64,000 nt of DNA, from positions 153,284 through 217,283 of the forward strand of contig LBWX01000003.1 in the NCBI GenBank assembly GCA_000995065.1, given 5' to 3'. The translations under genes were made by a program, and so were the position numbers. Each line of letters begins with the position of its first letter. The first letter of the stretch is position 1. The DNA is from a candidate division CPR2 bacterium GW2011_GWC2_39_35. GTDB taxonomy: Bacteria > Patescibacteriota > CPR2. The notes below the pieces were generated by a model. The model worked only from the letters and a program-made list of their open reading frames with translations. It was not told where the DNA came from and searched no databases. Shown in pieces: positions 14,790-63,651 of this stretch.

Positions 14790-14846
14790 GAGGGTGGAGA
14801 ACTTAAATCCCCGAATTTCAGGGCTCCGTTTCACTTCGCTCGAAGA
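14790..14846. repeat. dispersed intergenic repeat family (tattgttcgac ... gtggagaact ... cgtttcacttcgctcg), copy 1; related copies at 53120-53190 and partial at 23177-23193
   Basis: 16-mer cgtttcacttcgctcg present three times in window; copies 1 and 3 share additional upstream blocks. Confidence 0.6.
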
Positions 14847-23122: not shown

Positions 23123-23176
23123 GTTTTAGTTCTCGACTTCGTTTTAGTTCTCGACTTCGTTTTAGTTCTCGACTTC
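23123..23176. repeat. tandem repeat: 3 perfect copies of 18-bp unit gttttagttctcgacttc, followed by a degenerate fourth copy gtttcacttcgctcgaac
   Basis: read directly in the 152-bp spacer between ABC permease and ATPase genes. Confidence 0.8.
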
Positions 23177-23246
23177 GTTTCACTTCGCTCGAACAGTATT
23201 TCCTATCGACCCATTGACCCATTAACCGATTCGCCAATTTGCCTAT

Positions 23247-41421: not shown

Positions 41422-42351
41422 ATGACAACTAACCTAATATCAATAGTCTCCCCCGTTTTTAATGAGCAGGAAGTTATTCAAGATTTTCTAAAAGAAACTC
41501 AAGAAAACTTAAAAAAAGATTCATATGAAATTATTCTTATTGATGACGGTTCCACAGACAATACTCCAGATATTTTAAAAGCCATTGTCGTCCAAAATCC
41601 CAAAATTAAAGCTATCCGCTTTACCCGAAACTTTGGCCAGCAAGCGGCAATCATGGCCGGACTCCGGATGGCCAATGGAAAAGCAATTATCGTGATGGAC
41701 TCTGACCTCCAAGACCCGCCTCAATATATTCCTCAACTAATTAAAAAATGGGAAGAAGGCTACAAAATTGTTTATGCCAAAAGACTTAAAAGGCGCGATT
41801 CTTTTTTAAAAAAATTCACTGCCTCAATTTTTTATAAGCTGCTTCATTTTCTAACCGATACTAAAATGCCAAAAAATACCGGCGATTTTTACCTCTTGGA
41901 CAGAAAAGTGGTAAACGAGCTTAAGCAGCTTCCCGAAAAGTTTCTTTATTTTAGAGGTCTTACAGGCTGGCTCGGATTTAAGCAATCAGAAATCGAAATA
42001 ATTCGACCTAAAAGAATGAAGGGAACAACCGGATATACTCTTAAAAAAATGATGCGCCTAGCAACAGACAGCTTGCTTTCCTTTTCCAATAAGCCCTTAA
42101 GAGCCATCACCTACCTCGGTATGATTGTTTTGATGACTGGCATAGTTTTAGGCTTGGCTCTTTTATTTAAAGCTTCTTTATTTAAAGAACAGACCTTATC
42201 TCCCATATTGCTTGTAACAATCATTATTCTTAGCGGCCTAAACCTCATCTCTTTAGGGATCATCAGCGAATATTTAAGCCGGATTTTTTTCCAAACCCAA
42301 GACCGGCCTCTTTATGTAATCGAAGAAACTTATGGTTTTAAAAAAGAGTAG
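41422..42351 (+). CDS. family 2 glycosyltransferase (polyprenyl-phosphate sugar synthase, DPM1/ArnC-like) with C-terminal TM helices
   Basis: 309 aa; ISIVSPVFNE, IILIDDGSTD, DSDLQD motifs; two C-terminal TM. Confidence 0.8.
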   Translation: MTTNLISIVSPVFNEQEVIQDFLKETQENLKKDSYEIILIDDGSTDNTPDILKAIVVQNPKIKAIRFTRNFGQQAAIMAGLRMANGKAIIVMDSDLQDPPQYIPQLIKKWEEGYKIVYAKRLKRRDSFLKKFTASIFYKLLHFLTDTKMPKNTGDFYLLDRKVVNELKQLPEKFLYFRGLTGWLGFKQSEIEIIRPKRMKGTTGYTLKKMMRLATDSLLSFSNKPLRAITYLGMIVLMTGIVLGLALLFKASLFKEQTLSPILLVTIIILSGLNLISLGIISEYLSRIFFQTQDRPLYVIEETYGFKKE

Positions 42352-43621
42352 AAAAGTTGGTATTATTGGCAGCGGTATCGCCGGCCTTGCTTGCGGCTAT
42401 TTTCTCTTAAAAGAAGGTTTTGAGGTTGTAATCTATGAAAAAGACCAAGAGCTTGGCGGGCTCCTTAAAACGACTACAACCCAAAAGAATGTTAGAATAG
42501 AAAAGTTTTATCATCATTTTTTTAAAACCGACACTGAACTTTTAGAATTAATAAAAGATATTGGACTAAACCCTAAGGTCATCTGGCAAAAAAGCACTGT
42601 TAGCTTTTACCGTAATCATCAATTCTCCAACTTAAATACTCCCCTAGACTTACTAAAACTGCCTTTTATATCTTTTACTTCAAGGTTAAGATTCGGCATC
42701 GCAACCTTAATCCTTAAACACGCTACCAATCTAAACAGATATGAGAGCATGACGGCTAAGGAACTCGTCAGTAGATGTTTTGGTAAAGATATTTGGGACA
42801 AAATTTGGTCTCCTTTGTTTGAAGGCAAGTTTGGAATATATAACGACAAAATTGGCGCCGCCTGGCTCTGGTCAAGAATTAAAACTCGAACTAGTTCCAG
42901 AAGAAACGGCAAAGAAACCCTGGGTTATATTAAAGGAAGCCTTTGGGAACTAGTGAGTGCCCTCAAGGAAAATATTAACAATAAAGGCGGCAAGATAATT
43001 ACCGGCAAAGAAATAAAAAGTATTCGTTCGTTAAAAGATAAGTTGATTATAGGAAACGAAGAGTTTGATTTTATAATAAGCACAATTCCCCTTAACGACT
43101 TCATAAAAATCGCTCCCCTTACTACCAAAGAAAAGGTTAGGCTCGGAGAAATTTCTTACCTCGGAGCTATCTCTACCTTAATCGAGTTAAAATCAAAACA
43201 AACAAATTATTATTGGAACAACGTCTTAGACTCTAAAATTCCCTTTAAAGGCATCATCGAGCACACAAATCTTGTAAGCCCCGAGGAATACAAAAATAGT
43301 CATCTACTCTATCTTAGCCATTATTTACCAAATAATTCTGCCTTCTTTAAGTCTAACGATAAAGAAATTAAAAATACTTATCTTAACTATCTGGAAGAAA
43401 TCATTCCAAACATCCGCAAAGTAGTAATTAGCATCCAAGTATTTAAAGAGAGTAATGCTCAACCGGTAATTTATAGTAATTTTAGACCGCTACATAATTC
43501 CACGTCTTTAAAAAACCTCTTTATGACGAGCATGGCGCATACTTATCCATTCGACCGGGGAATGAATGAAGCCATAAAAGAAGCAAAAAAAGTTGTAAGG
43601 CTAATAAATTCTGATAATTAA
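42332..43621 (+). CDS. FAD/NAD(P)-binding oxidoreductase (amine-oxidase / protoporphyrinogen-oxidase-like fold)
   Basis: 429 aa; N-terminal VGIIGSGIAGLACGYFL ... EKDQELGG dinucleotide-binding motif; overlaps GT2 gene by 20 nt. Confidence 0.65.
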   Translation: MVLKKSRKVGIIGSGIAGLACGYFLLKEGFEVVIYEKDQELGGLLKTTTTQKNVRIEKFYHHFFKTDTELLELIKDIGLNPKVIWQKSTVSFYRNHQFSNLNTPLDLLKLPFISFTSRLRFGIATLILKHATNLNRYESMTAKELVSRCFGKDIWDKIWSPLFEGKFGIYNDKIGAAWLWSRIKTRTSSRRNGKETLGYIKGSLWELVSALKENINNKGGKIITGKEIKSIRSLKDKLIIGNEEFDFIISTIPLNDFIKIAPLTTKEKVRLGEISYLGAISTLIELKSKQTNYYWNNVLDSKIPFKGIIEHTNLVSPEEYKNSHLLYLSHYLPNNSAFFKSNDKEIKNTYLNYLEEIIPNIRKVVISIQVFKESNAQPVIYSNFRPLHNSTSLKNLFMTSMAHTYPFDRGMNEAIKEAKKVVRLINSDN

Positions 43622-43999: not shown

Positions 44000-44980
44000 A
44001 TGAAAAAAACACTTTATTCATTCCTAGTCTTAGCACTCCTTCTTCCATCAGTAATTTTTGCAAGAGAAGCTAATGGAGAAGAATCAGGGAAAAATACCCC
44101 GACTCCAAGAGTAACTACTACTACCACCGAAGACGAAGATGTAAACGAAACTACTACTACAGCAACCCCGACTCCATCAAAAACAACTACCCCAAAAGTT
44201 ACTCCAAAAACATCAAAAGAAAGCCTGGAAGATTCCCTAAAAGCTTATAAAGAAGCAAGCGAAGCTAAAAAGCTTGAAAAGCTTAAAACTTTCGGCACAA
44301 AAGCGGTTGATAACAGAATCAAAGAGTTAAATAACATCATCTCTCAGATCGAAAAAAATAAGATGTTGGAGAGTGCTGACAAGACAGAACTTAAGACCGA
44401 CATCCAAAAAGAAATCGCAACCCTAGAAGCCCTTAAGGAAGAAATCACCAGCGCAACAGATCTCGAAACCCTAAGAACCTTAATTAAAAAGATCTATACC
44501 GATCACAAAATCTACGCTGTCGTTAAACCAAAACAACTGGCTATTTTAGCAGCTGCAAGAACAAAAGGCGCCGTCAATAAATTAGAAAATTTGGAAAAAA
44601 GGCTAGAAAAACTGATAGATAAAGCAAAAGACGATGGCAAAGACACTACCGCCGTAGAAAGCTATGTTACCGATTTTAAAGCTAAAACCGAACAGGCAAA
44701 AAGCTTAATCGATAAAGCAAAAGCTACTTTTAAATCGATGCCGATAAATGACCCCGCAAAAGCCAAGGTTTTAAGGGAAGAAGGCAAAGGATACCTAACA
44801 CAAGCTAAAGATCTTCTAAAACAAGCAGGCACCGATTTAAAGAAAATTATCGCTGCTTTAAAAACAGAAAAAAAGTCCAGTAATAGTAACACAGACGATG
44901 ACGATGATACTACTCCATCGACAACGCCAACACCATCTGCTACCCCAACCTCAACACCTACTCCAACAACGACCGAATAA
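44000..44980 (+). CDS. secreted coiled-coil protein with Thr/Pro-rich N- and C-terminal linkers
   Basis: 326 aa; signal peptide LLLPSVIFA, TTTTED..TPTPSKTTTPK and C-terminal DDDDDTTPSTTPTPSATPTSTPTPTTTE. Confidence 0.5.
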   Translation: MKKTLYSFLVLALLLPSVIFAREANGEESGKNTPTPRVTTTTTEDEDVNETTTTATPTPSKTTTPKVTPKTSKESLEDSLKAYKEASEAKKLEKLKTFGTKAVDNRIKELNNIISQIEKNKMLESADKTELKTDIQKEIATLEALKEEITSATDLETLRTLIKKIYTDHKIYAVVKPKQLAILAAARTKGAVNKLENLEKRLEKLIDKAKDDGKDTTAVESYVTDFKAKTEQAKSLIDKAKATFKSMPINDPAKAKVLREEGKGYLTQAKDLLKQAGTDLKKIIAALKTEKKSSNSNTDDDDDTTPSTTPTPSATPTSTPTPTTTE

Positions 44981-45002
44981 TGATTGCACTAATAATTCTA
45001 AT

Positions 45003-45031
45003 AAAAACCGCCCAGCAAAGGGCGGTTTTTA
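45003..45031. terminator. rho-independent terminator aaaaaccgccc-agcaaa-gggcggttttt
   Basis: 6-bp GC stem flanked by A5 and T5 tracts. Confidence 0.8.
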
Positions 45032-45094
45032 TTTGCATATCATAAAATAAATTAACCCAATTGCCACCCTTTTCTAAAAGCAATAGAAAGTATC

Positions 45095-45187
45095 TTTTTT
45101 CGTCATTCCCGTGAAAACGGGAATCCGGGAAAGCTTGGGAAGGAATGGGGCATCTGGATTCCCACCTCCGCGGGAATGACGAAAAAG
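45095..45187. repeat. compound palindromic REP/MITE-like element (outer 17-nt perfect inverted arms tttttcgtcattcccg / cgggaatgacgaaaaa with internal hairpins)
   Basis: direct reading; core gtcattcccg / cgggaatgac shared with second copy at 60923-60983. Confidence 0.65.
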
Positions 45188-45286
45188 TGGGTGGTTCAGA
45201 TTTAAGACAGTACAGATTTGAATTTAAGTTTAAGCACTTGATTTTTTTAACCGATAGTTTCATTATATATATAGGAGGTAATTATT

Positions 45287-49844: not shown

Positions 49845-52052
49845 TTATTTAGATGCTTTTCGATATGCATTTATATTCTGAGAGTTCTGGCTTTTTTCGA
49901 TGCCGGTTTCCCAGGGAATAAAGAATCCAAAGGTACAACCTTTTCCTGGCTTACTATCAAAATAGATATTACCTTTATGGCCCTCTATAACTTCTTTTGC
50001 CAAAAAGAGACCAAGACCACTGCCATCCGGCCTTATTTGTTGGGCATTTGATCCCCTAAAGAATTTTTTAAATATATCTTTTTGTTGATCTCCCGGCACT
50101 CCAATTCCCGTGTCTTTAACAAGCACAATCATTCCCTTATCATCTTTGTCCACAACAACAGTAATCCCGCCATCTCTTGTATAAAAAATAGCATTTTCAA
50201 TAAAATTAGAGATTACCTGACCCATCTTTAACTTATCAATCATCATCTTCTTTCTCTTTCCAGTCAAAACTTCTAGTTTCAAGAATAACTGCCTCGACTC
50301 TGCCCTTTCCCTCAAATGAGCCACTTCCTCAGCCGCAATTTCCGCAATATCAATAAGTTCTCCCTGCATAAAGAATTTACCCGTATCAATCCTAGAAATA
50401 TTCAAAAGATCATCAATAAGCCTCTCCATTCGGGAGGTATTTAAATAAGCCTCCTGCATAGCATTGAGCTGTGTTACCGTCAGATCGCCGAAGTCTCCCT
50501 CCACAAGCATATGAAGATAACCCGCAATAGTGGTAAGCGGCGTTCTAAGCTGATGAGATGCCATTGCCAAAAACTGATCCTTTGCCTTATCCAATTCCTT
50601 TAAATGTTCATTAGCCCTTAAAAGTTTGGCCGTTGATTTTTCGACTTTTTCTTCTAGAGTACAGGCAAAATTTTTTATTTCTTCATATTGACAAGCATTC
50701 TGAATAGCCACGGTCAGCTGATTGGATAAAATATGTAATACTTTAATGTCCTCCGGGCTGTAACTTTCTCCGGATTTCTTATGCCCAATTAACATCACTC
50801 CGGCTAAATAAGATTTTGTTTTTAAAACAAAGCTTATCCCGCTGTCATATTTCTTAAGAAGCGCTTTTCTGGGATCTGAATCGGCTAACTCGTATTCATC
50901 AAGAAGCATCTTTGTCTTAAGCATGTCAAATTCTTTAGGTGTTAGTTTTATTAGCTTTCCGAATCCAACTGCGTAAGTATCTTTTAAGTTACCTTGCTCG
51001 TCGGCAATAGCAAATAAGATACGAGAAGTTTTGATGGTAATCTCAAGCGCTCTAAATACCTTGAACAAAATTTCATGAAGTATTATTGTTGAGCTTATTT
51101 CTTCGCCGATTTCATTTAGAAATTCTTCTGACCGATATTGATTTTTGAAGAAGAACTTGTCCGTAATCTTGGCAATGAAGATTTTTATTGGCTGAAAAGA
51201 AAAAATTAGAACTAATACCACGGCAATGCGAAAAATCTGATGCCCGATGCTCACCTCTTCGCCAAAGACCAAAACATTTGCGGCATATATAAAAGCGGTA
51301 TATGCAATTGCAAGAGTCATAACAAGAAGAAAGAAAGCAAATGACTTGACAAAAATTACCTTAATGTCTATCAGACGATGCTTTACAATAGCATATGCGG
51401 TAAAGCTCAAGAAAATGAGCGCTGAGTAATTGCCGATTGCCCAGAATTGGGGAATTCCCTGAAAAAAGGGCAAAATGACGTTAAAAATAAGATTTGCCAA
51501 AACCCACACGAAGAAACCAAATAGAAAATAAACGAGCTTAGCTCTTGCATTAGCTTTAGATTTAAAATAATTTACCAAAAAACGATAGGCAATATATAGA
51601 AACCAAAAAAATATCAATGAGAAATAAGCATATGCGCCCTTCCCCAAAACAGGAATAGCTCCATACTGCGTTACCGCCATGTTTTTTACCATGAAATTGC
51701 CGGAAATAGAAATAGTAAATAAAAAAAGGCTCGAAAATATTAAAAAGAAATCCATTTTAATATTTTTCTTGTATTCCTGTAAAAAAGAAGTAGAAAAAAA
51801 ATAGAAGGGGATAAAGAAAAGAGCGACAACACCATATGCAATTCTACCCCAAAGCGGATCCGTAGTAATAAAAATAGAATTTCCTAAATAACATGCAAGG
51901 ATCCACAAGAACAAAAAAAGCGAGGTCCAGAAAAAAAATACGTTCACCTTGAGTCTCGAGTTCGAGGAAAGAACCCAAAAACCGAGCCCCAAACAAAGTA
52001 TTCCAACTACGATTGTCAATATTGCGTTAATCAAAAAAAATGTTTCTGCCAT
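49845..52052 (-). CDS. sensor histidine kinase with N-terminal multi-TM (7TMR-type) sensor, GAF-like linker, HisKA and HATPase_c domains
   Basis: 735 aa; ~8 TM; H-box MASHQLRTPLTTI; G-boxes DTGIGVP.. GSGLGL. Confidence 0.8.
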   Translation of the reverse strand: MAETFFLINAILTIVVGILCLGLGFWVLSSNSRLKVNVFFFWTSLFLFLWILACYLGNSIFITTDPLWGRIAYGVVALFFIPFYFFSTSFLQEYKKNIKMDFFLIFSSLFLFTISISGNFMVKNMAVTQYGAIPVLGKGAYAYFSLIFFWFLYIAYRFLVNYFKSKANARAKLVYFLFGFFVWVLANLIFNVILPFFQGIPQFWAIGNYSALIFLSFTAYAIVKHRLIDIKVIFVKSFAFFLLVMTLAIAYTAFIYAANVLVFGEEVSIGHQIFRIAVVLVLIFSFQPIKIFIAKITDKFFFKNQYRSEEFLNEIGEEISSTIILHEILFKVFRALEITIKTSRILFAIADEQGNLKDTYAVGFGKLIKLTPKEFDMLKTKMLLDEYELADSDPRKALLKKYDSGISFVLKTKSYLAGVMLIGHKKSGESYSPEDIKVLHILSNQLTVAIQNACQYEEIKNFACTLEEKVEKSTAKLLRANEHLKELDKAKDQFLAMASHQLRTPLTTIAGYLHMLVEGDFGDLTVTQLNAMQEAYLNTSRMERLIDDLLNISRIDTGKFFMQGELIDIAEIAAEEVAHLRERAESRQLFLKLEVLTGKRKKMMIDKLKMGQVISNFIENAIFYTRDGGITVVVDKDDKGMIVLVKDTGIGVPGDQQKDIFKKFFRGSNAQQIRPDGSGLGLFLAKEVIEGHKGNIYFDSKPGKGCTFGFFIPWETGIEKSQNSQNINAYRKASK

Positions 52053-52058
52053 TTTTAT

Positions 52059-53033
52059 TTAGCTCTTGCTTACTATTTGTAATATTAATAATTTTTCTAA
52101 TTTTTGTCCCAATTCTCTTATTTCGATTAAGTCTTTAATGTCCTTTTTGCCGCTAATATCCTTGTAGCACTCATCCCAAACATTCATTAACTTTTCTTCT
52201 AGCCTATCTCTTTTTATCTTCGCTATAAGTTCTTCACTACTTATTGCTTCCAAATTATCGACGTCTAAAATATTAGAATCCAGCGCATAAGCAAAAATCA
52301 AGCTTGTCAAATCCTTCTCGTCTATTTCCCTTTCCCACGTACTGATCCAATTTCCAATCCTGCCCATCTTCTGTGCCTTTAGAATTATGTCTCTTATTTC
52401 TTTTAATTCTTTAGGCGTTAATCTGCCGTTTCCGGCCATTAATTCCATAATATTATAAAGCATCATTTGCATCGAGCATGGAAAATAAGTCCAGTAATTT
52501 TCCGCGCTTATTAAAAAAGGGTGGCTGCTCACTAAAATAGCAAATCTCATAGAATTAAATATCTGGTCAATTTCAAAGCTAAGAATGTTTTTAAAATCGC
52601 TATAAAAAGGAAAATTGGCTATTTTTTTATTAATATGCCGAAAAATATCTAAAGCAAATGTCGAAAGAGTATCTAAATTTTCCCTCCCTAAATAATTATC
52701 GTTAGAAATAGCTTTGTATATTTCTTCTAAAAGCTCGCTGTCTTTTTTTAAATCCGCAATATCGTCTATGATGACGACAAACATACTGAATAAAAATTTT
52801 GCTTCCTCAACGTCTTTTTCATAGCTTTTATCATAATCAACAAAAGGAGAGACATTTTTAATAACACAATAGGTAAACGGCCATATTATGTTACTTCTTA
52901 CTCCGCCGGCCTTTACGTATTCATCCACCCATTTTTGAATGTTTTGAGGTAAAGGCACGCTCATCATGTTATCTAACTCAGACCTGATACTTTCCGGACT
53001 TAGTTTCGATTTTATTTCTTCGATTTTCCTCAT
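52059..53033 (-). CDS. class I terpene synthase-like protein (putative terpene cyclase)
   Basis: 324 aa all-alpha; DDIAD (aa 90-94) and NWISTWERE (aa 228-236; N..T...E = NSE/DTE motif), 138-aa spacing as in bacterial sesquiterpene synthases. Confidence 0.5.
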   Translation of the reverse strand: MRKIEEIKSKLSPESIRSELDNMMSVPLPQNIQKWVDEYVKAGGVRSNIIWPFTYCVIKNVSPFVDYDKSYEKDVEEAKFLFSMFVVIIDDIADLKKDSELLEEIYKAISNDNYLGRENLDTLSTFALDIFRHINKKIANFPFYSDFKNILSFEIDQIFNSMRFAILVSSHPFLISAENYWTYFPCSMQMMLYNIMELMAGNGRLTPKELKEIRDIILKAQKMGRIGNWISTWEREIDEKDLTSLIFAYALDSNILDVDNLEAISSEELIAKIKRDRLEEKLMNVWDECYKDISGKKDIKDLIEIRELGQKLEKLLILQIVSKS

Positions 53034-53119
53034 AAATATATTTTATCATTTTAAAGCTACCGCTGAAACCAAAAAAACGTAAACAACTTTTTTCGTTCAT
53101 CTTTCGCTACTTGTGTGCT

Positions 53120-53190
53120 TACATATTGTTCGACCTTGTGGAGAACTGCATTAAAGTACTTCTAGACCACGTTTCACTTCGCTCGCCATA
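53120..53190. repeat. dispersed intergenic repeat family, copy 3
   Basis: atattgttcgaccttgtggagaactgcattaaag...cgtttcacttcgctcg. Confidence 0.6.
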
Positions 53191-53390
53191 CCATCCGTAT
53201 GGGAAGAAAAAAGCAACTGCTCAACCCCATCGTCATTGCGAGGAGTTCATACGACGAAGCAATCTCGCTCCAGTTCCAGACAAAGATCGCCACGCTCATT
53301 TCATTCGCTGAGGGTGACAGTTGTGAGCAGTTACGAATAAAATAGGTAGTTTAGGTGTCAAATGCGAAAGTCGCGTTCAGTAGTATTGGA

Positions 53391-53912
53391 TCAATTGGAT
53401 ATTGTATTTAAACTTTCTAACCTCTCTAGAGCAATAATAAACCACGGCGTATATTTATCCGGATTCTCTTCCATGTCTTTTTTGAGATCATTAATGTTTA
53501 CCCATTTCCAATCTGCTACTTCCTCTTTAACGGGTTTCACGTCTCCATCATACTCCCCGATTAAAGTGGCGCAAACCTCGGACTCCGCTCCCACATCTTT
53601 ATAGGCGGCATGGTACTGAAACTTATCTGCCATTTTCAGTTTGCAGGTAAATCCTAATTCGTCCAACAATCTTCTTTCCCCTGCCTTCTCATAACTTTCA
53701 TTCTCCCTTGGATGGCTGGCACAGGTATTGTCCCATATAAGAGGCCAAAGCATTTTTTTCTCGCTTCTTTGCTGAATCAAAAGTTCACCCTTTTTATTAA
53801 AAATAAAATCTGCAAAAGCCCGATGAAGCTTTCCTTCATCCAGATGCGCTTTTACTTTTTCTTCCAATCCAATATTTTTGTCGTTTTCATCAACCAGTAT
53901 TACCTTTTCCAT
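53391..53912 (-). CDS. idi: isopentenyl-diphosphate delta-isomerase, type 1 (Nudix fold)
   Basis: 173 aa; HRAFADFIFN, NTCASHP Cys motif and WKW/E-rich catalytic region typical of IDI-1. Confidence 0.8.
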   Translation of the reverse strand: MEKVILVDENDKNIGLEEKVKAHLDEGKLHRAFADFIFNKKGELLIQQRSEKKMLWPLIWDNTCASHPRENESYEKAGERRLLDELGFTCKLKMADKFQYHAAYKDVGAESEVCATLIGEYDGDVKPVKEEVADWKWVNINDLKKDMEENPDKYTPWFIIALERLESLNTISN

Positions 53913-53913
53913 T

Positions 53914-54945
53914 TTATTTTTCCCTCTCGATTACAAAATTTGCAAGACCGGATAAAAGTTCCCGCCACTCATTTTTCGGCAAACTCTTAAGCTCGCCCCT
54001 GGCTTTTTCGACATAATTTCTAGCGATCTTGGCGGCTTTTTCTTTAGCTTTAGTTTTTTTAATTAATTCGATCACTTTTTTTACTTCGCCCTCTGTGACC
54101 GGATGATTGCTGTTTAAAACGCCATGAATTTTTTCTTTATCCTCGGCACTTAATTCCTCCAAAGCTAGAAGGATCACCACGTTGCCTAGTTTTTTTTCAA
54201 TAATATCTTTGCCGACCTTTTTGCCAAACGATTTTTCATCCGCAAAAATATCCAAAATGTCATCTTGAACCTGGAAGGCCATTCCCAAATTAAAACCATA
54301 ATTTCCAAGCATCAAAATTTCCTGCCAGTGTCCGCCGGCACAAATTCCGCCAGCTTCACAACTAGCCTTTAGCAAAACAGCCGTTTTTTTACTTATCATT
54401 TCAAAATAGTCTTCTTTAGAAATGTTTTTATACCTGTTTTTTGTAACAAAAGGCTCGTTCTCCCGTCCGGAACGCTCAAACGAAACATCAGTAATCTCAC
54501 CATCAGCAATTGCCTTTAGGGTTTTAGCTAGAAGCTCTGTTAGTCTAGAAACATTGGGAGATTTATTTGCACCCTGAAAAACAGAAACTGCATAATCTAT
54601 TCCGGCACACTGTGCCATGGAATTTCCGTATTTTGCCCAAACGGTCGGCTCATTCCTTCTAAAATCGCTGTGGTCGATCATGTCGTCTATAATAAGAGTG
54701 TAATTATGAAGGATTTCTAACGATGCGGCCGCATGAATGACATCTTCCAGCTTTCCTCCCAAACAAAGACAAGAAGCAATGGCCAGACCCGGTCTAATTC
54801 TTTTTCCCCCAACCTTCATTTGGTGATCCAAAAGCTCATGATTTCTTGCACCAACACCATCGTTTAAAAGATCTAAAATTACCGGATCAACCGCTTGGCT
54901 CCACTGGGTCAAATAAGTTTTTACGCTTTCTTTAGTAATAGGCAT
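53914..54945 (-). CDS. short-chain polyprenyl diphosphate synthase (FPP/GGPP synthase-like)
   Basis: 343 aa; first DDxxD LIIDDMIDHSDFRR with Tyr at -5, second QVQDDILD. Confidence 0.85.
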   Translation of the reverse strand: MPITKESVKTYLTQWSQAVDPVILDLLNDGVGARNHELLDHQMKVGGKRIRPGLAIASCLCLGGKLEDVIHAAASLEILHNYTLIIDDMIDHSDFRRNEPTVWAKYGNSMAQCAGIDYAVSVFQGANKSPNVSRLTELLAKTLKAIADGEITDVSFERSGRENEPFVTKNRYKNISKEDYFEMISKKTAVLLKASCEAGGICAGGHWQEILMLGNYGFNLGMAFQVQDDILDIFADEKSFGKKVGKDIIEKKLGNVVILLALEELSAEDKEKIHGVLNSNHPVTEGEVKKVIELIKKTKAKEKAAKIARNYVEKARGELKSLPKNEWRELLSGLANFVIEREK

Positions 54946-54957
54946 ATTTTTCCTTTC

Positions 54958-57135
54958 CTACGGTGTCGTAACCAGCATTCTTTTCTTTGGATCTGCCTTT
55001 ATTATAGATTTTATCGGAATTCTAAAGCCAAAAACCGAACCCTTGGAACTAGACCTAAAGATTATCTCGCCGCCATGATCTTCCACTACCCTTTTAGCCA
55101 AATAAAGGCCAAGGCCATTACCATCCGGACGCAAGCGCCTGGCGTTATCCGCCCTGTAGAATTTAGAGAACAATTTATTTTGCACTTCTTTTGGAACACC
55201 AATGCCGGTATCAATTACCTCAAAGACAAATTCGTGTTTATTGGCCGCGGCTCTTACAGTCACTCCGCCCTTTTCTGTATAATAAATCGCATTATCAATA
55301 AAGTTCATTATGACCTGACGAATCTTATTCTCATCGGCCTGAACGGTTGACATCTTTTTAGGGCACTCAAACTTAAGCCACAAGTTTTTGGTTCTAGCCT
55401 GATGCGCTAATTGTTTAACTTCATCAGCAATCATAACTTTCATATCAAGATCCTTGGGATCGATAAAGAATTTGCCCGTACTCATTCTGGACACATTTAG
55501 AAGATCATTAATTAAAGTCACCATCTTATTAGCGCCCTGAAATGCCTCATTTATAAAGTCAAACTGGCCAACCTTGATTTCTCCCGCATCCCCTTCTAAA
55601 AGCATGGATAAATAACCCTTAATAGCTGTAAGCGGAGTGCGCAGCTGATGAGATGCCATGGAGATAAACTCATCTTTTGCCTTGTCAAGTTCTTGCAGAT
55701 GGTCGTTAGCTTCGCGAAGTTTTTTGGTCTGACGCAAAACCTCCGCCTTCAAGGTGATGTTAAACTTCTGGATTTCCTCATACTGCTTGGCCCGCTGCAT
55801 CGCCATGGTAATTTCCGGCTCCACAATCTCTAAAATCTGGATATCTTTTGCCGCATACATATCCCCCGACTTTTTTTCACCCAAGAACAAAATGCCGGCA
55901 AATTGGTGATCCTCCATAAGCCTAACGGCTACCGAAGTCTCATATCTTCTTAAAATAGATTTGAGCCTGCTTCCTTCTTCTAATTCGTCATATACTGCAA
56001 TTGGAAAGCGGCTTAGATATTTAATGTCGCCGTATTCAACTTCCGGCGCTTTTTTGTAACCGATAGACTGAACAGAATGAATATGCCCTTCCTCTACTAC
56101 TACAAACATGCCTTCTAATATTTTAAATTGCTGCAAAATATGATCTAAGCTTTTATAAAGAAGCTCGGTTAAGACGATATTGGTACTTAAGATATGGTTA
56201 GTTTCCCTAAGAAAAGCATCCGGATCATACTGCTCTTTAAAGAAAATTTTATCCGTAACTTTGGTAAGAAATCTCCGTAATGGCTGAAAGGTAAAGGCCA
56301 TTACCATGGCAAGAATGATTTGGATGATTGTATGCGTCATAGAATAACCCTGCTCCGGAAAAAACAATCTCTGAACTGCAAAAATCGTAGTAGCATAACC
56401 CCCGGCAAGAATGATGACAAGCAGCGTATATGCCAAAGATTTGGCAACCACCATCCGAATGTCCATAAGACGATGTTTAACAATGGCGTAGGCTATGCCA
56501 CCAATCATAAAAACAAAACCATAAATCCCTAAACGATTAACTGTTTCATTAACTATCAACAGCCTAGGTATGATTAGGTTAGTTGAAATTGCAATTGTCG
56601 CAGATAAAGATAACCCCATTGTTATATAAAGTAATTGCGACCTAGCCACTCCTCGAGAAGAAGACAATTTTTTAATAAGAATAGTGATTCCCACAAGAGA
56701 TAAGGCAATTAACATGACAGAATAAATAATAAATAAAGGACCCTCTTGAAAATCTATGCCCATATCTTTAGAAAAATGTACGCTCTCAATAATGTACGAT
56801 GAATAAGCTAATCCAGAAAAAACAATTGAAGCTATTAACGATACTATCCAAAGAGTATTCTTTATCTTACTCTCAGACTGAAAAACCAAGCAGAAAGAAA
56901 AAAAGGTAAACGATGTGATTAGACCAAATGCAAAATCTGTCCTTACAAGATAACTAACTAAAGCAACATTCAATGTCTCGCTTTCAAAAAAAATAACCAA
57001 TGACCAAATAGATAACGCTAGTGTAAGCAAGAAGAAGATAAGGTTGGAGGGTTTTTTTGAATTTCTAGAAAAAACCAGGAGACCAAGAAACAAATTTAGA
57101 GAGACCGCTATAATTAAAAGCGCATAACTAATCAT
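54958..57135 (-). CDS. sensor histidine kinase, paralogue of 49845-52052 (multi-TM sensor + GAF-like + HisKA + HATPase_c)
   Basis: H-box MASHQLRTPLTAI; same architecture; start set at MISYALL (ORF-track start 57171 overlaps upstream gene). Confidence 0.8.
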   Translation of the reverse strand: MISYALLIIAVSLNLFLGLLVFSRNSKKPSNLIFFLLTLALSIWSLVIFFESETLNVALVSYLVRTDFAFGLITSFTFFSFCLVFQSESKIKNTLWIVSLIASIVFSGLAYSSYIIESVHFSKDMGIDFQEGPLFIIYSVMLIALSLVGITILIKKLSSSRGVARSQLLYITMGLSLSATIAISTNLIIPRLLIVNETVNRLGIYGFVFMIGGIAYAIVKHRLMDIRMVVAKSLAYTLLVIILAGGYATTIFAVQRLFFPEQGYSMTHTIIQIILAMVMAFTFQPLRRFLTKVTDKIFFKEQYDPDAFLRETNHILSTNIVLTELLYKSLDHILQQFKILEGMFVVVEEGHIHSVQSIGYKKAPEVEYGDIKYLSRFPIAVYDELEEGSRLKSILRRYETSVAVRLMEDHQFAGILFLGEKKSGDMYAAKDIQILEIVEPEITMAMQRAKQYEEIQKFNITLKAEVLRQTKKLREANDHLQELDKAKDEFISMASHQLRTPLTAIKGYLSMLLEGDAGEIKVGQFDFINEAFQGANKMVTLINDLLNVSRMSTGKFFIDPKDLDMKVMIADEVKQLAHQARTKNLWLKFECPKKMSTVQADENKIRQVIMNFIDNAIYYTEKGGVTVRAAANKHEFVFEVIDTGIGVPKEVQNKLFSKFYRADNARRLRPDGNGLGLYLAKRVVEDHGGEIIFRSSSKGSVFGFRIPIKSIIKADPKKRMLVTTP

Positions 57136-57721
57136 AAACAATTCCTCGTCTCCAATTTTTAACATAAACATTCTGAATTTGGTTTTGCTTATCAGGAAAT
57201 TTTGAATTACTAATTATATCGATAGCCTTTTTTTCAACACCTTTATATTTTAACTGTAATACATTTATTAATTCATTGCCAACAAAACCTTTTCCTTTAC
57301 TCTGATGATAGAAATTTAAATAACTATAATCTAATAGCCCTAGCCTTAAAAAGTACCACACAGATATGAGCAAAGAACAAGGAATATGACCCTCTTTATT
57401 ACTAATATAACTTAAGTAACTTCTTTTTGCTTTACCTTCGTTTATTAATTCAAAAAAAGGCTCTTTAAGCTTAACTAGCTCGGACTCAAATAGTACAAAA
57501 TCTGGCATAACGTTTGAATGCTCGAGATTGGATAAGTACTTATCTATGTTTAATTTCTGCCTTGTCGGATTATAATCATCAATTAAAAGTGCTAGACTAT
57601 AAGACAAACCTTTTTCGCCAATACTTATGGTTATGTCCTTAACTGCCGGGATCATACCATGAGAACGAATATTTTTTTCATCAATATAAATATGAGCAAA
57701 CTCAATGCTAAAACTTTCCAA
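57128..57721 (-). CDS. hypothetical protein
   Basis: 197 aa ORF, no recognisable motif. Confidence 0.4.
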   Translation of the reverse strand: MESFSIEFAHIYIDEKNIRSHGMIPAVKDITISIGEKGLSYSLALLIDDYNPTRQKLNIDKYLSNLEHSNVMPDFVLFESELVKLKEPFFELINEGKAKRSYLSYISNKEGHIPCSLLISVWYFLRLGLLDYSYLNFYHQSKGKGFVGNELINVLQLKYKGVEKKAIDIISNSKFPDKQNQIQNVYVKNWRRGIVYD

Positions 57722-58894
57722 TTATTTGCCTCCCAAAATTAGCTTAAGCAAAAATTGGTTAGTTGCTGCTTTTTCAAATAACCAACCCCAAAATTTAGGA
57801 AAAGGAAATGAATAAAAGGGATTTGTTGCCTTAAATAAAACACCATAATTACCACTTTCTTTGTCTCCAACAAAACCATTTTCAACTAGCCTAACTTTCT
57901 CTAATCCGAAAGATTCATACATCCGAATTTGCGGGTCAAGCGCAACCTCTTTACCATCCTTTATAATTCTCTTGCTATAATATTCCTCTGGAGTCATTTC
58001 CTGTCTAAACTTATGAAAGTCTGGCATTCTACCACTAAAATATGCCATTTTTTTGCGTTCTGCTATTAATTTCCTCCCCGCCGCCGCAAAAAGCCTATCT
58101 ACCAATTCCAAACCTCTAACGTCAGGGCTTGTTGTTAATGCAACACCATAAACATACCTACCGTTAGAATCAAATGTAGTATCAAGTGTCCCATTATCAG
58201 TTGAGTCCTCCCAAGATGTAAAATCCTTAATTCCTTTATTGGTAGGCATTAGGCTTAAAATTCCTTTAACTTTTCCATCCATATCAGCAACAAAAAACCA
58301 TTCTTTACTATTTTCTATCCTTTTTCCCATCATCTCCCCAGTAGCCGTAACTTCTTTAGAAATGTCACCATACCTATCATTATCAACCTCTAGTATGTCC
58401 TCCAGATCTGATATTTTAACATTTCTTATAATAACTTTTTTTCTATTGAAAATCCTATTGAATTCTAGCGGAATGCTTGCTATTAACAAAACAATAGATA
58501 GTTCAACAAATAGTAATGAAGAGATTAAAGGAGGCAACTTATCCCATCCACTAACCAATAGATAGGCTGGAGGAACAAAAGCAGCTATCCTGTTCAACGT
58601 AAATCCCGTATACACTAACTCATTTTCGAATGTTACGTTCTGAAAATCTAAATTAAAAATATGATTAAGGCGCAATTTTATAATACCACTACCAAGAATC
58701 ATTAAAATAATGCCGATATTAAAAAAAATCTCACTAATAATTAATATGGTTAAAAAAAACATTGGATCAATACCGTATTGCTCATTAACAACGTTAAAAC
58801 CTTTTACAATAATTTCAAAAACTAGCCAACCAATGATAACAAGGGTTGTTAACAATACTATCTTTGAAAGTCTTTTATTTTTCCCTAGTTTCAT
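57722..58894 (-). CDS. membrane protein (4 N-terminal TM) with C-terminal GNAT-like acyltransferase-type domain (tentative)
   Basis: 390 aa; hydrophobic N-terminal third; C-terminal YVYGVALTTSPDVRGLELVDRLFAAAGRK block reminiscent of GNAT motif A. Confidence 0.4.
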   Translation of the reverse strand: MKLGKNKRLSKIVLLTTLVIIGWLVFEIIVKGFNVVNEQYGIDPMFFLTILIISEIFFNIGIILMILGSGIIKLRLNHIFNLDFQNVTFENELVYTGFTLNRIAAFVPPAYLLVSGWDKLPPLISSLLFVELSIVLLIASIPLEFNRIFNRKKVIIRNVKISDLEDILEVDNDRYGDISKEVTATGEMMGKRIENSKEWFFVADMDGKVKGILSLMPTNKGIKDFTSWEDSTDNGTLDTTFDSNGRYVYGVALTTSPDVRGLELVDRLFAAAGRKLIAERKKMAYFSGRMPDFHKFRQEMTPEEYYSKRIIKDGKEVALDPQIRMYESFGLEKVRLVENGFVGDKESGNYGVLFKATNPFYSFPFPKFWGWLFEKAATNQFLLKLILGGK

Positions 58895-60263: not shown

Positions 60264-60884
60264 CTAAGTTTTGTGCTCGTACTCATGCCCAATCTCACGC
60301 GCTATCTCAGGCATTAAGATGTCGTGCACTATTTCTTCGGGTGTTTTGTCAGCAATTTCTTTATAGGAAATCGGTTCCAAGAATTTAACCCTACAAATCC
60401 GCTTTATTCTGGGAAACTTATGATGCCTTCCAAAAACGTGATGCGAATTTTCTATAGCTACAGGCAAAATATCTACCTGATTTTGCAGAGCCATTCTAGC
60501 CACGCCCCTATATGCCTTAAGCGGTTTTCCATCGTAGCTCCTGGTTCCTTCCGGGAAAAGAACTAAGATATGGCCTCTTCCTAAAACATCAGCCGCTGCC
60601 TGATAAACCATCTTCTTATCTTTACTAAAACGATCCACCTTTATTTGTCCGGTTATACGCATAATAAACCTAAAGAAAGGGTTTCTATAGATCCAGTCTG
60701 CCGCCAAAAAGAAAAGTCTTCTTCTAACCGCCGCACCAAGAAATGCAAAATCCAAATAACTCGCGTGATTAGCTGCAATTATAATCGGCCCCTTTCTGGG
60801 AATATTATGCTTTCCCTCAACCCTTTCTATCCAAAAAAGTTTAATCAGGGGGCTTAAAAGAATTTTTAGAACTCGATACAGCAT
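60264..60884 (-). CDS. plsC: 1-acyl-sn-glycerol-3-phosphate acyltransferase
   Basis: 206 aa; NHASYLD (HX4D) and FPEGTRS motifs. Confidence 0.8.
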   Translation of the reverse strand: MLYRVLKILLSPLIKLFWIERVEGKHNIPRKGPIIIAANHASYLDFAFLGAAVRRRLFFLAADWIYRNPFFRFIMRITGQIKVDRFSKDKKMVYQAAADVLGRGHILVLFPEGTRSYDGKPLKAYRGVARMALQNQVDILPVAIENSHHVFGRHHKFPRIKRICRVKFLEPISYKEIADKTPEEIVHDILMPEIAREIGHEYEHKT

Positions 60885-62578: not shown

Positions 62579-62980
62579 TTGGTCATGAAATCAACCGGAC
62601 TATCAACCAAAATAAACGAAAAAAGAAAGAAGCAACCCCTGCACCGAAGCTTTCAAAGTGCTTTTAGAGGCATAAAACACGGCACGGAAGAGCGTAATTT
62701 CTTGATCCATTTATTTTTTGGTTTTTTAGCCATCAGCCTTTCTTTTGTCTTTAACTTAGATTTAATCGAAAAAACTATCATTGTGGTTCTAACCGCTCTT
62801 GTCTTGGGGGTAGAGCTCATCAATTCCGCCATCGAAAGATCTTTAGATTTTATAACTACCGAGCATCACCCCGAAATTGCTAAAATTAAGGAGCTGATGG
62901 CCGCTGTAGTTTTAGTGTTTGTTGTAGCTGCCTTTGTTGTAGGTGTCCTCATCTTCTCAAAAGCAATATTTCTTAAATAA
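62579..62980 (+). CDS. dgkA: diacylglycerol kinase family (DgkA-type; could be undecaprenol kinase)
   Basis: 133 aa; EERNFLIHL catalytic-region motif, three TM. Confidence 0.7.
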   Translation: MVMKSTGLSTKINEKRKKQPLHRSFQSAFRGIKHGTEERNFLIHLFFGFLAISLSFVFNLDLIEKTIIVVLTALVLGVELINSAIERSLDFITTEHHPEIAKIKELMAAVVLVFVVAAFVVGVLIFSKAIFLK

Positions 62981-62982
62981 TT

Positions 62983-63651
62983 ATGAGAAAAAAATATTTA
63001 AAAAAGTTTCTTGTAGATTCGTTAATTATTATCACGGCAATTATCGTAACGCTTGCCGTAATCGTTCATGTTTTCCCGGTTTTATCTATTGATGTCGAGA
63101 TTTCTAGAAAAATTCAGGAGAACGGTGGTTCAATCCTTCTTGAGGCCATGAAGCTTATTAGTATGTTTGGAAATGCCGCCGGATTGCTTACGACGGTAGC
63201 TTCAGCTTCCGCCATTTTTTATTTTTTTTCTTATCGCCGAGAGGCATTATTTCTCATTTCAACCATAGCCGTAGATGCTGCAACGCTGGCTATAAAATAT
63301 ATTGTCAACCGTCCCCGGCCCGATTCCAGTCTGGTTAGCATCTATGCCAAGGTTACGGACCCTGGCTTTCCAAGCGGACATGTTGTACATTACACCGTTT
63401 TTTTCGGCCTGATTTTTGTTTTCATGCTGCGCCTTAAGAAAATTCCTATACTCACCCGAATTCTTATAAGCTATATTTGCCTTAATCTGATTTTTTTAGT
63501 ACCGATTTCCAGAATTTATCTGGGCGTACACTGGCTTACCGACGTTATCGGCGGATATTTAGTAGGACTGTCTTTTCTTATTGTGCTGCTATACTTATAT
63601 TTTTATCCTAAGACTTTAAAAAAGCTATCCAAGAGATTTGACATTAAATAA
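62983..63651 (+). CDS. PAP2-family membrane phosphatase (phosphatidate / undecaprenyl-diphosphate phosphatase-like)
   Basis: 222 aa; KYIVNRPRP, PSGH and later H/D-containing C3 region (YLGVHWLTD) = PAP2 motifs. Confidence 0.75.
   Translation: MRKKYLKKFLVDSLIIITAIIVTLAVIVHVFPVLSIDVEISRKIQENGGSILLEAMKLISMFGNAAGLLTTVASASAIFYFFSYRREALFLISTIAVDAATLAIKYIVNRPRPDSSLVSIYAKVTDPGFPSGHVVHYTVFFGLIFVFMLRLKKIPILTRILISYICLNLIFLVPISRIYLGVHWLTDVIGGYLVGLSFLIVLLYLYFYPKTLKKLSKRFDIK

Follow-up and report, generated by a model that had tools for sequence, protein, structure and literature searches.

A terpene-synthase-like protein family linked to two-component signaling in Patescibacteria, haloarchaea and Planctomycetota

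Introduction

What kind of protein is encoded, and what purpose could it serve, when a terpene-synthase-like gene lies between isoprenoid biosynthesis genes and a sensor histidine kinase gene in a bacterium of the candidate phyla radiation (CPR)? This question is raised by a 64,000-nucleotide stretch of the genome of candidate division CPR2 bacterium GW2011_GWC2_39_35 (assembly GCA_000995065.1, contig LBWX01000003.1, positions 153,284 to 217,283), which is referred to here as the window. The gene under study, designated TSL for terpene-synthase-like, a name used also for its family, occupies positions 52059..53033 of the window. On the basis of sequence comparison and structural modeling we propose, with a probability of about 0.7, that TSL is a Mg2+-dependent class I terpene-synthase-type enzyme acting on farnesyl diphosphate (FPP) or geranylgeranyl diphosphate (GGPP) and coupled to two-component signaling. 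The TSL family is genomically hard-wired to two-component and cyclic di-GMP (c-di-GMP) signaling. TSL genes are nearly always found beside, or fused to, genes for signaling proteins, which suggests that terpene production is tied to cell signaling in these organisms.

Motifs, Conservation and Predicted Fold

The TSL gene is one complete ATG-to-TAA open reading frame (ORF) on the minus strand, a point that the first-pass annotation of this DNA had not given, and it encodes a single alpha domain of 324 aa. Re-translation from the DNA bears out the protein length and both motifs reported in that annotation. The Asp-rich motif DDIAD, at residues 90–94 (52752..52766, minus strand), forms the C-terminal end of a long helix spanning residues 68–95 (helix D), and the NSE-type motif NWISTWERE, at residues 228–236 (52326..52352, minus strand), forms the C-terminal end of the helix spanning residues 206–237 (helix H). 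The distance of 138 residues from D90 to N228, which had been likened to that of bacterial synthases, indeed resembles the distances in authentic sequences, namely 139 in pentalenene synthase (PS) and 141 in epi-isozizaene synthase (EIZS). In 200,000 composition-matched shuffles of the TSL protein, DDxx[DE] occurred in 26%, [ND]xxx[ST]xxxE in 33%, and both motifs at a spacing of 130–150 residues in approximately 0.4%. The motif pair by itself is weak evidence, suggestive of a terpene synthase and nothing firmer, and it is conservation and fold that must carry the argument.

The TSL family is large. A word-indexed search recovered 12 relatives and an exhaustive profile search far more, with 742 cluster representatives (50% identity) at E values up to 1e-3 and 386 at E values up to 1e-30. 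Members are found in the Patescibacteria (Paceibacterota, Saccharibacteria, Nealsonbacteria, and Moraniibacteriota), many haloarchaeal genera, the Planctomycetota, and other lineages. Nearly all are annotated as “hypothetical protein”, or as DXS alone in the case of fusions; one Natrinema member is annotated as “terpene synthase family protein.” Conservation was investigated in a set of 161 sequences, made up of the window protein and 160 others that include the best 150 of the 742 representatives, and identity to the window protein within this set ranges from 21 to 50%. D90 and D91 are invariant, position 94 is Asp or Glu in 160/161 sequences, and N228, T232, and E236 are found in 159/159, 157/159, and 158/159, respectively. 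All six putative metal ligands are therefore at least 98% conserved, and the earlier proposal that N228, T232, and E236 fit the metal-binding pattern agrees both with this conservation and with their position at the end of helix H. Because the six ligands are near-invariant across 161 diverged relatives and the fold also matches, the motifs represent more than chance. Conservation of at least 90% extends to ten further residues (R46, R214, R225, R235, D241, W51, W286, Y39, Q157, and Q221), and the strongly conserved positions map to helices that include D and H, the metal-motif helices, according to the AlphaFold helix boundaries. The spacing from DDxxD to the Asn ranges from 131 to 160 residues in the family, with a mode of 140–141, and helix H carries the signature N-x-[LIV]-x-T-W-x-R-E. 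The full family signature can be written as DDxx(D/E)...~140 aa...N-x-[LIV]-x-T-W-x-R-E...S-(R/K)-G-x-K-COOH.

An AlphaFold model of TSL, built from the 12-sequence alignment, consists of 15 helices (pLDDT 88.5, pTM 0.88), in keeping with the all-alpha character ascribed to the protein from its sequence. DDIAD and the N/T/E motif close the two helices that take the places of class I helices D and H, and the model has the class I terpenoid-synthase alpha fold. When it was used as a Foldseek query, the top 50 matches were all class I terpene synthases, with query TM-scores of 0.52–0.58 for bacterial enzymes and 0.61–0.65 for plant alpha domains. The first-pass annotation had named a non-terpenoid-synthase fold as the result that would speak against its proposal; the comparison was run, and class I cyclases head the matches.

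The class I isoprenoid-synthase fold is common also to chain-elongating prenyl diphosphate synthases and to head-to-head synthases of the squalene/phytoene type, and TSL might be such an enzyme misread as a terpene synthase. We consider this very improbable. The fold ranking rejects it, and TSL has NxxxTxxxE as its second motif in place of a second DDxxD. A polyprenyl synthase would carry two such motifs, as had been argued from the sequence, and the genuine prenyl synthase already encoded next door does so (DDMID and DDILD). In addition, neither Pfam polyprenyl_synt (PF00348) nor SQS_PSY matches TSL even at E values up to 10, and the protein does not qualify as a member of the squalene/phytoene synthases.

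At the sequence level, the sole family match in a Pfam scan of TSL is PF19086 (Terpene_syn_C_2), at 18.4 bits. This weak match recurs independently in 8 of the 12 close relatives, the best family member reaching an E value of 1.2e-4, and approximately 10 of 120 distant members have a precomputed match to the same family. An NCBIfam search of the TSL protein gave no match. Two family profiles were also compared with PDB sequences, one of 12 sequences (A1) and a broader one of 55 (A2). The only significant match of A2 among all PDB sequences is AtTPS18, a plant sesterterpene synthase (E 2.5e-5). This match spans the NSE/DTE helix and aligns R225, N228, T232, E236, and D241; the TSL NSE motif is aligned with NDVGTYETE of AtTPS18 and NDLCSLPKE of EIZS. 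At the level of fold and motifs, then, the class I terpene-synthase interpretation is supported, and TSL is very probably a terpene-synthase-type enzyme belonging to a large uncharacterized family. The term “terpene-synthase-type” denotes here an assignment by predicted fold and by motifs; it takes in cyclases, synthases of acyclic products, and prenyl-transfer enzymes alike and implies no particular substrate such as a sesquiterpene precursor.

Several observations weigh against this reading. The PF19086 score of 18.4 bits falls below the gathering threshold of 23.7, profile A1 has no match among PDB sequences, and the Foldseek TM-scores are no higher than 0.52–0.65. Comparisons of the family profile with the single EIZS or PS sequences by hhalign were not significant, and the residue equivalences with bacterial terpene synthases therefore rest on spacing and predicted helices. 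The effector triad that the first-pass annotation had proposed to look for does not appear in canonical form: the pyrophosphate-sensor Arg expected 46 positions upstream of the Asn of the NSE motif (R194 in EIZS, R173 in PS) is T182 in the window protein and is present in only 2% of the family, and the family alignment has no conserved Arg or Lys within residues 172–192. The RY pair named in the same proposal is replaced by the family C-terminal S-(R/K)-G-x-K, and the window protein has neither a true RY pair nor an adjacent Tyr. It ends two residues short of the S-R-G-x-K tail and has Lys where most members have Arg. Position 2 of its NSE motif, which is not a ligand, is Trp and not Asp. At several positions that are conserved in the family, the window protein departs from the consensus, with S for N176, N for E179, and E for both D154 and D197. 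The strong conservation of the pocket over three phyla is more like housekeeping or ligand binding than diversifying secondary metabolism. Finally, the confirmed members of the family are known from sequences and models.

Comparison with Characterized Terpene Synthases

Four bacterial class I synthases were compared with TSL: 10-epi-cubebol synthase (7ZRN), the (E)-biformene synthase LrdC (6OH6), EIZS (3KB9), and selinadiene synthase (4OKM). Like these enzymes, TSL has a helix D that ends in DDxx(D/E), a helix H that ends in N-x-x-x-(S/T)-x-x-(R/K)-E, a similar spacing between the two motifs (138 residues versus 139–141), and a predicted helix G1/G2 break, at residues 183–187. It differs from them in its low identity (7–13%), in its sub-threshold Pfam match, in lacking the N-46 sensor Arg and effector triad, in having S-(R/K)-G-x-K at the C-terminus in place of the RY pair, and in the Trp at NSE position 2. 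It also differs in that its active-site residues are held constant across the family instead of varying, and in its obligate genomic coupling to histidine kinases.

The diphosphate-binding residues of TSL form an atypical set, and the C-terminus is one region in which a substitute for a canonical element could be present. The Arg or Lys of S-(R/K)-G-x-K lies exactly at N+95 in 73% of the TSL family, and the RY position is N+95 in PS and N+98 in EIZS. In the window protein this residue is K323 (52065..52067, minus strand), at N228+95, and the protein ends K323-S324-stop, as do its closest relatives. No family member was found to have a C-terminal extension; all fusions are N-terminal, which fits a functional free C-terminus.

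Among plant enzymes, the alpha domains of AtTPS18 (7BZB), bisabolene synthase (3SAE), and sabinene and limonene synthases were compared. The segment R225-x-x-N228-x-x-x-T232-x-x-x-E236-x-x-x-x-D241 of TSL aligns with R-L-A-N-D-V-G-T-Y-E-T-E-I-N-R-G-E of AtTPS18, and within it R225, which precedes N228 by three residues, is matched to the Arg conserved in the plant R-x-x-D-D-x-x-T motif. The Arg approximately 44 residues before the TSL DDxxD may likewise recall the plant RxR or R264-type Arg. TSL is unlike the plant enzymes in that it is prokaryotic, lacks the beta and gamma domains and the RRx8W motif, and has a much shorter N-terminus.

A more recent point of reference is provided by the first three active archaeal terpene synthases (TPSs), which consist of a single alpha domain, act on FPP, and were missed by default Pfam/InterPro searches and found at a relaxed Pfam threshold (bioRxiv 10.1101/2024.01.29.577750). 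The archaeal EnzymeExplorer TPS group of that study includes A0A5E4I9B1, A0A0E3NXY0, and A0A537EJD0. A0A5E4I9B1, which makes beta-bisabolol, has a DDxxD motif at residue 67, an Arg (R24) that contacts D68, and the sequence NTLNTWPRE at residue 221 (bioRxiv 10.1101/2024.01.29.577750). We compared it with the TSL family by these printed motifs. On this basis, NTLNTWPRE fits the TSL signature N-x-[LIV]-x-T-W-x-R-E, and the motif spacing of 154 falls inside the family range of 131–160, well off the mode of 140–141. R24 lies 43 residues before the first Asp, D67; R46 of TSL (52896..52898, minus strand), a near-invariant Arg (157/159), lies 44 residues before D90. With R24 as a model, R46 could be a partner of the diphosphate or of the Asp-rich motif, in the manner of the plant-type upstream Arg.

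Two haloarchaeal TSL members are included in a list of uncharacterized TPS-like sequences in the same preprint (bioRxiv 10.1101/2024.01.29.577750), and the terpene-synthase nature of the haloarchaeal branch was therefore already anticipated. The preprint, unlike the present study, reports neither kinase linkage nor fusions and includes no CPR bacteria. What appears to be new is the CPR branch, together with the coupling to kinases and the fusions with REC, PilZ, DXS, and geranylgeranyl-reductase-like (GGR-like) domains.

Linkage to Histidine Kinases

In the window, the start of a sensor histidine kinase gene (735 aa; 49845..52052, minus strand) lies 6 nt beyond the TSL stop codon. The partner kinase has approximately eight N-terminal transmembrane (TM) helices, a cytoplasmic domain, HisKA, and HATPase_c. 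This arrangement was compared with 21 distinct CPR loci that have readable downstream sequence. An ortholog of the partner kinase is found directly 3′ of TSL and on the same strand in all 21 of these loci as well as in the window, and in the window and all but one of the 21 loci the two genes are separated by −4 to +28 nt; in the remaining locus, which is frameshifted (L018), the gap is 226 nt. This invariant coupling is the most distinctive feature of the gene and had gone unmentioned in the first-pass annotation. The linked kinases have 7–9 closely spaced TM helices and no periplasmic domain, followed by HisKA and HATPase, and some contain an extra cytoplasmic domain of approximately 220 aa. 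A response regulator (REC) gene is adjacent to TSL in only one CPR locus (L024). In three loci (L006, L015, and L019) the upstream genes also abut TSL. A UbiA-like role was considered for the kinase TM domain and discarded, as inspection by eye revealed no Asp-rich motif in its N-terminal membrane region.

A second 7TM histidine kinase (737 aa; 54958..57171, minus strand; Pfam HisKA_7TM, HisKA, and HATPase_c) heads the run of kinase, prenyl synthase, and isomerase genes on the other side of TSL. The two kinases of the window are full-length paralogs (37% identity over 734 aa) that bracket the isoprenoid block, and the window is alone among the loci examined in having this duplication. Directly upstream of the first kinase of the run are two minus-strand ORFs, at 57128–57721 (197 aa) and 57722–58894 (390 aa, with an N-terminal membrane region), neither of which has a Pfam or NCBIfam match; the 197-aa one runs 44 nt into the start of the kinase gene.

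Three loci in the collection deserve comment with regard to their provenance. Two come from genome bins of other taxa, a Methanosarcinales archaeon (L016) and a member of the Lysobacteraceae (L007), and show the CPR-type arrangement of a GGR-like gene or a methyltransferase gene followed by TSL and kinase; both contigs are probably mis-binned CPR. In L007 the kinase is broken up into three ORFs, either because of frameshifts or because it is a pseudogene. The third (L037, positions 880–1843, JGI metagenome 3300025011) is identical to the window locus (100% identity), with its TSL called as two proteins of 249 aa and 80 aa. Either a frameshift in the assembly or strain variation accounts for the split, and the database copy of the protein (P0001) is truncated because of it.

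The gene order raises the possibility that TSL is a prenyl-transfer enzyme, one that passes the carbocation to an acceptor (peptide, small molecule, or lipid head group), with the modified molecule acting as the ligand of the kinase. A precedent is the ComQ-ComX-ComP-ComA system of Bacillus, in which the gene for an isoprenoid-fold enzyme lies upstream of that for a multi-TM histidine kinase: ComQ prenylates the ComX pheromone, which is sensed by the multi-TM kinase ComP. DabA, furthermore, is an N-prenyltransferase with a terpene-synthase fold. TSL loci resemble comQXPA in that the gene for a soluble class I-fold enzyme of isoprenoid diphosphates immediately precedes a multi-TM kinase gene. 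The partner kinases, with 7–9 TM helices and no periplasmic domain, are consistent with this possibility, and a strongly conserved pocket would fit one defined acceptor. However, we consider prenyl transfer unlikely for several reasons. The gaps of −4 to +28 nt between TSL and kinase, and the abutting upstream genes of L006, L015, and L019, leave no room for a comX-like ORF, and the 357-nt spacer upstream of TSL in the window holds no conserved small ORF. A ComQXPA-type cassette was rejected because there is no space for the precursor ORF. In most loci no response regulator is adjacent, and the enzyme itself is terpene-synthase-like, matching Terpene_syn_C_2 and not polyprenyl_synt, the Pfam family of ComQ.

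Fusions with Signaling and Isoprenoid Domains

Outside the window, TSL is associated with a recurring set of isoprenoid and signaling genes. In 8 other distinct loci a prenyl synthase gene adjoins it, either of archaeal type and upstream or of an IspA-like DDxxxxD type and following the kinase. In 3 loci the gene immediately upstream of TSL encodes a GGR-like flavoprotein, which in one protein (P0064) is fused to TSL, and a gene for an S-adenosylmethionine (SAM) methyltransferase precedes TSL in 2 loci.

Fusions with isoprenoid enzymes are dominated by DXS. Of the 62 TSL representatives with an N-terminal extension, 46 contain a DXS or transketolase-like domain. One such fusion, in the Phycisphaerae, is annotated merely as DXS, and genes for IspH and a GGR-like flavoprotein are present in the same locus. 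Several Planctomycetota proteins of approximately 900–950 aa combine a DXS or divergent transketolase-like domain with TSL (P0068/P0269, at L033 7001–9748; P0099, at L036; P0075; and P0107). In several Planctomycetota fusions only the Transketolase_C part is still recognized by Pfam, and the DXS half of these may for this reason be degenerate.

Fusions with signaling domains include REC-PilZ-TSL and PilZ-TSL, with 8 PilZ-containing representatives in total, and REC-HalX-TSL in Salinarchaeum. The loci around the fusions are themselves rich in signaling genes. The L031 locus encodes REC, REC-PilZ-TSL, a hybrid kinase, REC-HATPase, and an FAD protein; the L033 locus encodes DXS-TSL, an FAD protein, IspH, a HAMP kinase, and REC-HATPase; and the L028 locus encodes REC-HalX-TSL, an FAD protein, and a REC-PAS-kinase. 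Histidine kinases are thus present in the Planctomycetota-type and haloarchaeal fusion loci too, and the FAD proteins of TSL loci form one GGR-like homology network across phyla. It follows that bacteria and archaea share a recurring triad, made up of the terpene-synthase-like enzyme, a reductase of the GGR-like kind, and a histidine kinase.

These fusions bear on whether TSL could be a non-catalytic sensor of prenyl diphosphates, which would bind Mg2+ and FPP or GGPP and report to the kinase in CPR bacteria or to the fused DXS in the Planctomycetota. DXS is a flux-controlling enzyme of the methylerythritol phosphate (MEP) pathway that is feedback-inhibited by isopentenyl diphosphate (IPP) and dimethylallyl diphosphate (DMAPP), and DXS-like fusions are the dominant fusion class. 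A sensory role would also be consistent with the tight coupling to the kinase, with the conservation of the pocket and ligand-binding residues across phyla, and with the absence of the canonical effector triad that triggers ionization. Nevertheless, a sensory role seems to us improbable, slightly more so than prenyl transfer. Pseudo-enzymes usually have lost one or more ligands, whereas each of the six metal ligands is at least 98% conserved in this family. Further processing of a product is suggested by the co-occurring GGR-like reductase and methyltransferase, and no terpene-synthase fold with a sensory function is known to us as a precedent. In REC-PilZ-TSL and REC-HalX-TSL, moreover, TSL takes the output position of a response-regulator architecture, and a protein made of input domains alone would be odd. 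This position favors a regulated enzyme over a sensor domain.

Genomic Context within the Window

On the minus strand, the order of genes around TSL is 7TM kinase (54958–57171), prenyl synthase, isopentenyl diphosphate isomerase (IDI), a 357-nt spacer, TSL, a 6-nt gap, and 7TM kinase (49845–52052). An FPP/GGPP synthase and an IDI had been claimed as neighbors of TSL, and profile matches confirm a polyprenyl synthase and an IDI there. The short-chain trans-prenyl diphosphate synthase (343 aa; 53914..54945, minus strand) matches Pfam PF00348 with an E value of 2e-57, and the IDI (173 aa; 53391..53912, minus strand), of type 1 (Nudix type), exceeds two NCBIfam equivalog cut-offs (NF002995, 157 bits against a cut-off of 127; TIGR02150, 137 bits against 106). 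The prenyl synthase is archaeal IdsA/GGPP-synthase-like, its best NCBIfam matches being IdsA_Meth and GGPP_syn, both below cut-off. Its first motif, DDMID, has no insertion and is accompanied by a Tyr at −5, and its second motif is DDILD. By the known chain-length rule, the product would be C15–C20.

The 357-nt spacer between IDI and TSL (53034..53390, minus strand) is locally GC-richer, up to 50% versus 38% for the window, and probably holds the promoter of the TSL and kinase genes. It contains no Rfam match, no repeat, no conserved ORF, and no promoter or terminator signal that stands out convincingly from shuffled sequence. Partial matches to the spacer occur elsewhere in the window, one of 29 nt at 86% (23163–23191) and one of 16 nt that is exact (14827–14842).

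No GGR-like partner of TSL was found in the window. The flavoprotein encoded at 42332–43621 was considered for this role and rejected, being of the amine-oxidase/phytoene-desaturase type and unrelated to the TSL-linked GGR-like proteins; its gene overlaps that of a family-2 glycosyltransferase (41422–42351) by 20 nt. At a distance of 7–10 kb from TSL are genes for a PlsC-type acyltransferase (60264–60884), a DAGK_prokar protein of the diacylglycerol/undecaprenol-kinase family (62579–62980), and a PAP2 phosphatase (62983–63651). This cluster may function in lipid or polyprenyl-phosphate recycling and may represent other consumers of the prenyl synthase product. A 101-aa ORF at 44958–45263 on the minus strand (…SFPRRWESRCPIPSQAFPDSRFHGNDEKR…) looks like the read-through of a non-coding or repeat element and not like a gene.

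Proposed Function and Implications

The catalysis, substrate, product, and direction of the signaling link that we infer from these data can be stated as a model. TSL would be a soluble enzyme whose single domain adopts the class I terpenoid-synthase alpha fold and in which D90, D91, and D94 on helix D and N228, T232, and E236 on helix H would bind a trinuclear Mg2+ cluster. The cluster would hold the diphosphate of FPP or GGPP, presumably supplied by the adjacent prenyl synthase and IDI, and R46, R214, R225, R235, and the C-terminal K323 could help to clamp it. Ionization would then generate an allylic carbocation, to be cyclized or quenched in a pocket lined by aromatic residues conserved in the family, yielding a terpene hydrocarbon or alcohol. 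TSL would be co-transcribed, and is probably translationally coupled, with the intramembrane-sensing 7–9-TM histidine kinase. The hydrophobic product could be the ligand of the kinase, the kinase could control terpene output, or the pair could act as a unit.

A wider proposal, which we advance as a tentative possibility, is that the TSL family consists of unrecognized signal-coupled terpene synthases whose terpenoid is the output of, or a ligand for, two-component and c-di-GMP signaling. The CPR product would be sensed in the membrane by the co-translated 7–9-TM kinase, the haloarchaeal and Planctomycetota enzymes would be switched by phosphorylation (REC) or by c-di-GMP (PilZ), and the GGR-like reductase would tailor the product. 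A literature search found no paper linking terpene synthases with CPR bacteria or Patescibacteria, no report of a terpene-synthase-fold enzyme coupled to histidine kinases, receiver domains, or PilZ domains, and nothing relevant on a fusion of terpene synthase and DXS in Planctomycetes.

CPR genomes are minimal, and the retention of a block comprising a prenyl synthase, an IDI, a terpene-synthase-like enzyme, and a kinase therefore implies an important function. If the wider proposal is true, the CPR terpenoid would be an autoinducer, a host-interaction signal, or a membrane-state signal in episymbionts with reduced genomes. With the TSL family recognized, hundreds of genes in CPR bacteria, haloarchaea, and Planctomycetota would receive a new annotation, and the coupling makes testable the idea that prokaryotic terpenoids act as regulated signals or membrane effectors. 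Since cultured, genetically tractable haloarchaea carry TSL members, this hypothesis can be approached outside the uncultured CPR.

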